Sequence record: PP554575 | Length of the DNA: 64,000 nucleotides | From: Escherichia phage PMBT16 | Reading direction: 5' to 3' (one strand) | Part shown: one piece after another, positions 47,316 through 47,920 of the stretch | Numbering within the stretch: position 1 is the first letter of the stretch | How the letters are laid out: each line of letters starts with the position of its first letter | The notes under the pieces: generated by a model | Database searches by the model: none | What the model was told of the DNA's origin: nothing | The model's input: the letters and a program-made list of their open reading frames with translations, nothing else | Program-made: the position numbers and the translations under genes

Positions 47316-47920
47316 TATTTTAAGTTATCAGGTTGCCAGAGATCAGGAGGATTTCTAAAATGGATTTCCTCCTTTTGATATTTTACCTACCAGGATATTT
47401 TAAAATCCTTAGAAAATCAGAAAATGGATCGAAAACTAAAATGGATTTTTCATAGCAGGCACGACGAGATGAACCACTCATCCTATCGTCTGCACCATAT
47501 TCCAGACCACCATTACAGATTTCCCGCACATGCTCACATCCTTCTACTAGAACTTCCCCCACTTACCCTTGACCTTTTATAGTAATAATCCAACCACTAC
47601 CTTGAAGTTGTGGCGCAGCTTTCCAAGTACTCGATCTGTTTTTCGTTTCAAAGATTGAATTTTCTGAAAATTTTTCTCGATAAATTTCTCAGTACTCGAT
47701 CTGTTTTTCGTTTTCTGAATCGGATTTTCTGGAAATCGTTCCGGCTCTCGACCTGAAATTTTTGGGGACGAAATCGATTTTTCGTTTTCAGAAATGGATT
47801 TTTAAAATTTCTATATGGGAATATTTTAGTGGATACTATTTTATAGGAAATTGTTACGGATGGTAATTAGCGTGCTAATTAAATTTATTAAATGCGAGGA
47901 GTTCTCATTTAGAATTTTGA
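47316..47920. repeat. AT-rich non-coding region with direct repeats (iteron-like; candidate origin or regulatory region)
   Basis: AGTACTCGATCTGTTTTTCGTTT present twice (47626 and 47691); AAATGGAT four times; TTTCGTTTTC repeats; no credible ORF. Confidence 0.5.

Follow-up and report, generated by a model that had tools for sequence, protein, structure and literature searches.

A conserved gene-free hub in rV5-like phages as a possible transcription-activated replication origin with Fur-box-type operators

A gene-free gap of 969 bp (positions 47316-48284) was analyzed computationally in a 64,000-nucleotide stretch of Escherichia phage PMBT16 (PP554575), an rV5-like coliphage and myovirus (Vequintavirus). 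The gap is referred to below as the hub and the whole stretch as the window. The hub is tentatively interpreted as a conserved, essential-looking, cis-acting internal origin of rV5-like phages, which would be activated by transcription and would carry a Fur-type operator module. An origin function of the region is plausible and transcriptional control elements are certainly part of it. The interpretation draws on repeat units that are unique to the locus and conserved as DNA, lineage-specific replacement of these repeats, an AT minimum beside the units, inward promoters without a coding target, a C-rich spacer template, and conservation of the hub independently of its flanking genes. An initial annotation, made from the sequence alone, had described the left two-thirds of the gap (47316-47920) as an AT-rich, iteron-like region of about 600 bp without a credible open reading frame (ORF), next to replication genes, and had proposed a replication origin with transcriptional control as the alternative.

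The absence of a credible ORF was borne out, and the gene-free stretch proved even longer, to 48284. It is bounded by the last gene of the upstream array (46983-47315) and by a run of small genes of unknown function from 48285. Short ORFs in the gap were not conserved in frame, length or presence in an alignment of 10 Vequintavirus genomes: an ORF starting MDFLLL was 31, 32, 35, 62, 70 or 84 aa long or absent, a 52-aa ORF kept just its first 9 residues, and indels of 1 and 2 nt were present. Small protein-coding ORFs, including those annotated in JeffSchatz, rV5 and FV3, were rejected on account of the unconserved frame and length, a stop in slur16 and the 1-2-nt indels.

Mean pairwise identity was scored per segment in the same alignment as follows.

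47258-47315, upstream coding sequence: identity 0.79
47346-47452, left block: identity 0.92
47453-47625, spacer: identity 0.72
47626-47820, three repeat units: identity 0.92-0.98
47891-48175, boxes, hairpins and promoters: identity 0.95-0.98
48176-48260, variable right edge: identity 0.65
48261-48395, downstream ribosome-binding site and gene start: identity 0.89

The elements of the hub (92-98%) were better conserved than the flanking coding sequence (79% and 89%). The interval 46900-48400 was 99.6% identical to Escherichia phages JeffSchatz and bov10K2 and was matched by 121 GenBank phage records, while a block at about 47901-47973, the most conserved of the hub, was matched by 269 phage records spanning Vequintavirus, Seunavirus, Certrevirus, Mydovirus, the Stephanstirmvirinae (Phapecoctavirus) and one Aeromonas Plateaulakevirus. 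The order of elements was shared across loci, namely GATATTT triplets after the upstream gene, AAATNGA-type motifs, a spacer, three units of about 70 bp, a palindrome array, a GC-rich segment with a GGTGWTTGTCTC core, and leftward promoters. This architecture recurs across the Vequintavirinae and, in part, in the Stephanstirmvirinae and an Aeromonas phage. No homologue of the genes flanking the hub in other genera was found in the window. A hub common to genera whose flanking genes differ suggests a cis function at the level of the genome, not regulation of one neighboring gene. A scan of IMG/VR with a 24-mer of box B (see below) returned a single contig, and the comparisons were hence based on GenBank phage records.

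The 23-nt direct repeat noted in the initial annotation, AGTACTCGATCTGTTTTTCGTTT, is present in two exact copies (47626-47648 and 47691-47713), with no further match at up to 3 mismatches in the 64 kb (expected 0), and forms the core of three direct units.

47617 (R1), 47682 (R2) and 47756 (R3), together 47617-47820, + strand: three direct units of about 70 bp, spacing 65 and 74 bp, repeated stretch 47-57 nt
About 47626-47661, 47691-47726 and 47765-47800, + strand: 38-bp cores, consensus GGttCTCGATCg.tTTTTCa.ttTc.a.AtCGtAtT

Units from seven phages of at least four genera (21 in total) aligned to the unit consensus without gaps, and the unit occurs nowhere else in the window. No common RNA fold of the units was found; together with the gapless DNA alignment, this suggests that the units are conserved as DNA sequence rather than as RNA structure. 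In the Stephanstirmvirinae, three AT-rich repeats of about 70-74 nt and of unrelated sequence occupy the same position, and such lineage-specific replacement is the pattern expected if binding sites co-evolve with a phage-encoded protein. The TTTCGTTTTC units of the initial annotation, like the other repeats that it described, are real: two exact copies are present (47706 and 47780), and the motif is not enriched over the window. As sigma-70 promoters the units were rejected, given that GGTTCTC lies about 32 nt from a TAtTnT-like element, compared with 25 nt in a neighboring early promoter (about 7 bp too long); by our own reading, they do not match the sigma-E or sigma-28 consensus either. 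A sigma-54-like TGGCAG-N5-ATGC at 48231-48247 was likewise discarded, its spacing being lost in rV5.

The units lie between two extremes of base composition.

47453-47625, composition of the + strand: C-rich, G-poor spacer, poorly conserved (mean pairwise identity 0.72)
47771-47920, no strand: AT-richest 150 nt, overlapping R3

At 26% GC, the segment 47771-47920 is the lowest in the 64-kb window and is a candidate DNA-unwinding element; it includes the palindrome TAATTAGC-NN-GCTAATTA at 47864-47881. The description of the region as AT-rich is correct for this segment but not for 47453-47625, which is 43-48% GC and strongly C-skewed. The GC skew at 47451-47600 (-0.54) is the lowest of all 150-nt windows in the 64 kb, and the equivalent spacer is the skew minimum also in ABPH49 and Kashira. 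A perfect DnaA box, TGTGGATAA, was also observed in the spacer of ABPH49; its counterpart in the window reads only TGTGGCGCA.

Right of the AT-richest segment, palindromes of the Fur-box type lie among predicted promoters.

47891-47909, no strand: box A, 19-bp palindrome AATGCGAGGAGTTCTCATT, Fur-box type, 7-1-7 TGAKAAT-N-ATTCTCA
47920-47938, no strand: box B, 19-bp palindrome AATGATAATCATTCTCGTT, Fur-box type, 7-1-7, 29 bp from box A
47917-47946, + strand: candidate promoter P_R, TTGAAT (47917-47922), an 18-nt spacer holding box B, CAGAAT (47941-47946)
47950-47990, no strand: GC-rich hairpin-like segment with conserved core GGTGATTGTCTC, between the facing promoters
47997-48027, - strand: P_L1, sigma-70-like, -35 TTGCTT (48027-48022), 19-nt spacer, -10 TATAAT (48002-47997)
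48053-48071 (to 48074), no strand: second operator GATAATGATAATCGTTCTC, overlapping palindrome AATGATAATCGTTCTCATT at 48056-48074, in the box-plus-hairpin copy 134-136 bp right of the first
48143-48171, - strand: P_L2, sigma-70-like, TTGACA, 17-nt spacer, CAAAAT, TG motif before the -10
47891-48035 and 48036-48175, no strand: box-hairpin-leftward promoter unit in tandem duplicate, 134-142 bp apart in Vequintavirus, hairpin GGTGRTTGTCTC

P_L1 and P_L2 are directed leftward into the repeats, with no conserved ORF and with the AT minimum 80-220 bp downstream. Their segments are 95% and 98% identical within the genus, respectively. A minus-strand TTGnnn-N16-19-TAnnnT with its -10 located 62-66 bp right of box B was present at all 9 loci compared in the Vequintavirinae and Phapecoctavirus, the spacers being divergent, and equivalents of P_L2 (TTGACA or TTGCAA, N17-19, TAnnnT) were found 211-230 bp right of box B in other genera. 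P_R faces P_L1 at a distance of about 40 nt. Its -10 is not invariant across genera (CAGAAT, CTGAAT, GAGAAT, GAAAAT, GCGAAC) and the evidence for P_R is therefore weaker than that for P_L1. In place of the tandem duplicate, other genera have a small minus-strand gene (61-88 aa) and a conserved, non-coding stretch about 110 nt long (CTACCGGCGATCCACCTTCC ... GTTAGCCCCGCCTTTTCGCCGTGGGGTGGCG); the window has neither.

The left block, adjoining the upstream gene, holds a hairpin and two families of short motifs.

47345-47384, + strand: terminator-like hairpin, stem AGGAGGA (47345-47351)/TCCTCCT (47367-47373), then TTTTGATATTTT; predicted fold
47314, 47377 and 47394 (47314-47401), + strand: three GATATTTT motifs, the stretch between the last two variable
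47358, 47422 and 47439 (47358-47446), + strand: AAATGGAT motifs within the block 47346-47452; a fourth at 47792, in repeat unit 3

The block 47346-47452 has a mean pairwise identity of 92%, with 82% invariant columns. The four AAATGGAT motifs of the initial annotation were confirmed and are locally enriched, as 4 of the 6 copies in the window fall within 47316-47920 (4.2 would be expected per 64 kb and about 0.04 here). Other genera have related AAATYGAGAT and AAATGGTTTT motifs at the equivalent place, and GATATTT(G) triplets likewise follow the upstream gene in Mydo, CR8, FENT2 and ABPH49.

Taken as an origin, the hub might operate in the following way. The long rightward operon with the replication genes appears, at the sequence and comparative level, to end at the hairpin 47345-47384. 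Transcripts from P_L2 and P_L1 would cross the 29-bp-phased palindromes, the AT-richest segment and the three units, and then the spacer with its C-rich template. Host RNA polymerase starting at either promoter would thereby open the AT-rich, repeat-containing DNA, and in Vequintavirus the G-rich RNA may stay hybridized to the C-rich template, from which hybrid a T7-like phage replisome could start synthesis. The units, together with the GATATTT and AAATGGAT sets, may bind a lineage-specific phage factor in an iteron-like manner, and host Fur, or a protein of the same specificity, at the palindromes may gate the facing P_R and P_L1. The replisome is predicted to be T7-like, with a family A polymerase and a gp4-like primase-helicase; a PIF1 helicase is also encoded. 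The replication genes (PIF1 helicase, DNA methylase, DnaB-like primase-helicase and family A polymerase) lie at 28.7-38.8 kb, and no initiator gene was recognized among the replisome genes. The proximity of the region to replication genes is loose, given that the polymerase gene ends at 38782, 8.5 kb upstream of the gap, with many small genes between.

Several observations weigh against an origin. An inflection of the GC skew, whose absence the initial annotation had itself named as refuting an origin, was not found: the cumulative skew keeps rising through 47-48 kb with no sign change at the locus, and its slope drops from about +0.12 to about +0.04, opposite to the expectation for the + strand at an origin. 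The rV5 paper similarly places skew changes at strand switches only, with none at 116.6-117.6 kb, the rV5 coordinates of the hub. No DnaA box (TTWTNCACA) is present in 47316-48284, and the window contains 4 compared with 8.6 expected. No Rep-like or other recognizable DNA-binding gene was found beside the gap, the neighbors being PHROG families of unknown function that differ between genera. Furthermore, the units are long (38-bp core, 65-78 bp spacing) relative to classical iterons, the C-skewed spacer was not found in FENT2, LNA4, Mydo and CR8, and the palindromes would lie at about +55 to +100 from the start of P_L1, which is unusual for a repressor. Promoters and transcription start sites alike are predicted, and literature searches on this phage group yielded no report of an origin, replication, a transcriptome or a Fur box. 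The negative results for skew, DnaA and Rep are weak evidence given a T7-like replisome, and the skew test is weak for phages whose skew follows transcription. The origin proposal of the initial annotation is partly supported: the repeats are real, unique to the locus, adjacent to the AT minimum and accompanied by inward promoters, and no skew inflection, DnaA box or Rep neighbor was found. Compared with iteron origins, the hub has an adjacent AT-rich element and three repeats in the same orientation, of atypical size and spacing, and has neither a cognate initiator gene nor DnaA boxes. What is expected of a transcription-activated origin, promoters reading into a gene-free AT-rich segment, is present at the sequence level. 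A lasting RNA-DNA hybrid is hinted at just indirectly, by the C-rich template at 47451-47600, a feature that some genera lack.

A purely transcriptional boundary or switch is a close rival and nearly as likely, though doubtful in itself. The hub would end the replication and middle operon, and a Fur-repressible P_R would read toward the early cassette; P_R facing P_L1 and P_L2 would give transcriptional interference or antisense control, and the units and short motifs would be operator or scaffold sites for a phage regulator or nucleoid proteins. The terminator, operators and promoters are the best-documented parts of the hub, and the alternative offered by the initial annotation, transcriptional control, is supported for parts of the gap by the terminator hairpin, the Fur-box-type operators and the sigma-70-like promoters. 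The hairpin has a 7-bp stem followed by the T tract UUUUGAUAUUUU and lies 30 nt past the stop codon of the upstream operon. Its 15-nt loop is large and conserved, and its folding-energy z-score is just -1.6. The stem is kept by a compensatory change (GGAGAA/TTCTCC) in slur16 and DrSchubert; in rV5 it is kept by a G.U pair (GGGGGA/TCCTCC). A G.U pair possible on the + strand alone, together with the compensatory change, argues for a + strand RNA terminator of the upstream operon. With its stem, U tract, location at an operon end and compensatory change, 47345-47384 has the predicted features of an intrinsic (Rho-independent) terminator.

The operators also favor a switch. Palindromes were compared with the 19-bp Fur consensus GATAATGATAATCATTATC or the 7-1-7 repeat TGATAATnATTATCA, and the E. 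coli K-12 fecI promoter, whose Fur site is among the footprinted sites behind the Fur model, served as positive control. The fecI site AATGATAACCATTCTCATA and the phage box AATGATAATCATTCTCATT (the version of box B in Mydo and anhysbys) are identical at 17 of 19 positions, and the -35 hexamer of the candidate P_R abuts box B, which fills the P_R spacer, much as the fecI -35 abuts its box. The second operator (48053-48071) agrees with the classical Fur consensus in 17 of its 19 positions (0.01 expected), and both TGATAAT-C-ATTCTCG and TGATAAT-C-GTTCTCA are present. All genera examined have arrays of 2-4 boxes with a 29-bp period. Copies of the palindrome AATGAKAA-NNN-TTCTCATT lie in the hub at 47891, 47920 and 48056 and in the terminal repeat of the genome at 59386, 59404 and 59520; elsewhere in the window there is only one match, with 3 mismatches (56870), giving 13 strand hits compared with 2.2 expected. 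By their sequence the boxes are Fur-box-type operators, to which Fur may bind.

Further support for a switch comes from the terminal repeat, where one of these palindromes overlaps the spacer and -10 of a minus-strand sigma-70-like TTGTGA-17-TATCAT (59433-59405), and from the downstream cassette (from 48285), which is dense in TTGACA-type sigma-70 promoter matches typical of early genes; regions dense in such promoters were read as early genes in a Certrevirus study. The rV5 paper predicts no promoter in the hub interval, P_L1 included. The motif TCGATAAATT at 47677-47686, which we take to match the reported high-affinity H-NS motif tCGWTWAATT, also counts toward a switch; it is invariant in 10 of 10 Vequintavirus genomes, with 2 matches in the window and 0.8 expected. 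A switch is less readily reconciled with the conservation of the hub where both flanking gene sets differ between genera, with units that are not sigma-70 promoters and are confined to the hub, and with a P_R -10 that varies across genera; it also leaves the extreme AT and skew segments unexplained.

A further reading, that strictly lytic rV5-like and phAPEC8-like phages read host iron status through Fur, with genuine phased boxes gating the facing promoters of the hub and more in the terminal repeat, appears rather unlikely. If it is correct, the phages would couple early transcription, or the start of replication, to the availability of iron; another possibility is that replicating genomes, present in hundreds, would titrate Fur, derepress host iron uptake and so feed phage nucleotide synthesis.

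Returning to the location of the hub relative to the genome end, the EdH4 record begins and ends with the same 459 bp, a repeat that maps to 59089-59547, in agreement with the short terminal redundancy (458 bp) reported for Vequintavirus. The window therefore contains a physical genome end, and the hub lies 11.2-12.2 kb inside the terminal repeat, or 8.2-9.0% of the genome of about 136 kb. The terminal repeat carries the palindrome family as follows.

59386, 59404, 59520 and, weaker, 59502 (59386-59538), no strand: adjacent pairs with an 18-bp period

EdH4 conserves three of these boxes. GATATTTK is another motif common to the hub (3 copies) and the terminal non-coding region (4 copies, at 59498, 59767, 59782 and 60009), all on the + strand.

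By analogy with T5, DNA entry could begin with a terminal segment of about 11-12 kb (8-9% of the genome) whose inner boundary is the hub, with repeats and palindromes binding host factors that pause transfer; this is judged improbable. In T5, the injection stop signal occupies 1.66 kb of non-coding DNA at 7.9% of the genome, with conserved repeats, palindromes and host-factor boxes and with unconserved neighboring genes (Davison, bioRxiv 10.1101/866236). The hub is likewise large, non-coding and repeat-rich, borders a block of small early genes on its inner side, about 8% of the genome away from one end, is dense in direct repeats, palindromes and host-factor-like boxes, and is conserved unlike its neighbors. 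Two motif families are common to the hub and the terminal region, and daunorubicin sensitivity is common to the Vequintavirinae and T5-like phages. T5, however, has paired DnaA boxes, a 10-kb terminal repeat and a proven two-step transfer, whereas paired DnaA boxes are absent from the gap, the phage repeat is 459 bp, and no two-step transfer is known for rV5-like phages. In addition, no homologues of T5 A1/A2 were found among the cassette proteins scanned, all hits being of unknown function.

A non-coding RNA locus, in which leftward or short rightward transcripts would be regulatory RNAs and the repeats RNA modules, is very improbable. Conserved promoters without a downstream ORF and the conserved GGTGWTTGTCTC segment within a GC-rich inverted repeat would fit such a locus, but Rfam gave 0 matches at the gathering threshold over the whole window (best E in the gap 0.18, with a score far short of that threshold), the units have no consensus structure, and the P_L1 leader consensus is weak (-6 kcal/mol). 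Folding energies were not above those of shuffles (z -0.9 to -2.0); for the GC-rich segment 47950-47990, z was -0.9 to -1.4, with no covariation within the genus. What is conserved in box B is an asymmetric sequence, with no compensatory restoration, and neither the hairpins nor the units nor the P_L1 leader showed a conserved RNA structure. Genome ends are often located in repeat-rich DNA without genes, and the redundancy of Vequintavirus is short, yet the hub as a physical genome end or packaging site is close to untenable, and as the terminus it is refuted, given that the 459-bp EdH4 repeat maps 11 kb away.

Additional observations concern the surrounding DNA and the records used. All genes from about 21 kb to 58 kb are on the + strand. 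For + strand genes at 21000-58000, the GC skew is about +0.12 left of the hub and about +0.04 right of it, and the AT skew rises, which suggests that the terminal cassette differs in composition from the replication and middle genes. A 47-nt indel polymorphism at 48238 closely precedes the first cassette gene; rV5, Pr121LW and the IMG/VR contig have the insertion, and the window lacks it. The terminal repeat lies in a gene-poor region of about 2.5 kb (58.06-60.6 kb). More repeats lie in the terminal non-coding region. Two identical copies of the 20-mer ATGCAAACGAATGGCATGGC are located at 58681 and 58955, the arms of a perfect 18-nt inverted repeat (GACATAATATAAAAGCAG) are at 58714 and 58848, and motifs resembling TATTATGTCA were noted at 58857, 59059 and 59069; position 59366 has the variant TATTATGTTA. 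On the - strand, a hydrophobic ORF of 46 aa (58038-58178; MKDYAIVIFTCMFVQCGQLL...) ends at a hairpin (58038-58054) that also follows the last + strand cassette gene, and this ORF may encode a real small membrane protein. Among the GenBank records, 16 'Campylobacter phage' entries (MG0656xx, host Campylobacter jejuni) and 'Acinetobacter phage ABPH49' belong to Vequintavirinae of the E. coli and Serratia type, with identities of up to 99.5% here; ABPH49 is near-identical to Serratia phage Kashira at the hub locus. The host labels on the 16 records and on ABPH49 look unreliable.

The rV5-like and phAPEC8-like phages are widely used therapy and biocontrol candidates for which no origin or early regulatory circuit has been defined, and the hub is unannotated in deposited genomes or annotated as spurious small ORFs. 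No prior description of the hub, the leftward promoters or the Fur-type boxes was found in literature searches. If the hub is an origin, it would combine the transcription-activated type with iteron-like units and gating by a host metal regulator; otherwise, the presence of Fur boxes in the terminal repeat and hub of a lytic phage would still connect iron sensing with phage development in an unexpected way. The three repeat cores, the phased Fur-type boxes and the two leftward promoters are delimited elements for mutation.

Transcription-activated origins are known from T7, where an AT-rich segment follows the tandem promoters phi1.1A and phi1.1B of the primary origin, and from T4 (the oriF/oriG type), where ori(uvsY) and ori(34) consist of a promoter and a downstream unwinding element that forms an R-loop. 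Like these, the hub has two tandem promoters reading into gene-free AT-rich DNA, a predicted T7-like replisome and no evident dedicated initiator gene. Unlike them, its promoters are predicted to be for host sigma-70, neither for a phage RNA polymerase nor MotA-dependent, these promoters are separated from the AT-rich or skewed DNA by three long repeat units and operator-like palindromes, and the origin role is a prediction. With iteron origins (lambda ori, P1 oriR, plasmid Rep, PLE RepA) the hub shares same-orientation repeats beside an AT-rich stretch and a lineage-specific repeat in a conserved architecture. It differs from their sites of 17-22 bp in helical phase in having 38-bp cores 65-78 bp apart, no adjacent or overlapping Rep gene and no DnaA boxes. 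The ICP1 early origin was uninformative as a comparator, the reference record having no comparable gene-free gap near 60 kb. Finally, the operator module resembles the fecI promoter in the box itself, in a -35 (TTGTAA in fecI, TTGAAT in the phage) that abuts the box and in an ATTCTCA half-site. Phage boxes are also found downstream of leftward promoters, unlike in fecI, and their binding by Fur is predicted from sequence. In contrast to chromosomal Fur clusters, in which sites typically overlap at 6-bp or 3-bp offsets, the phage arrays have a strict 29-bp period, and one of 18 bp in the terminal repeat.

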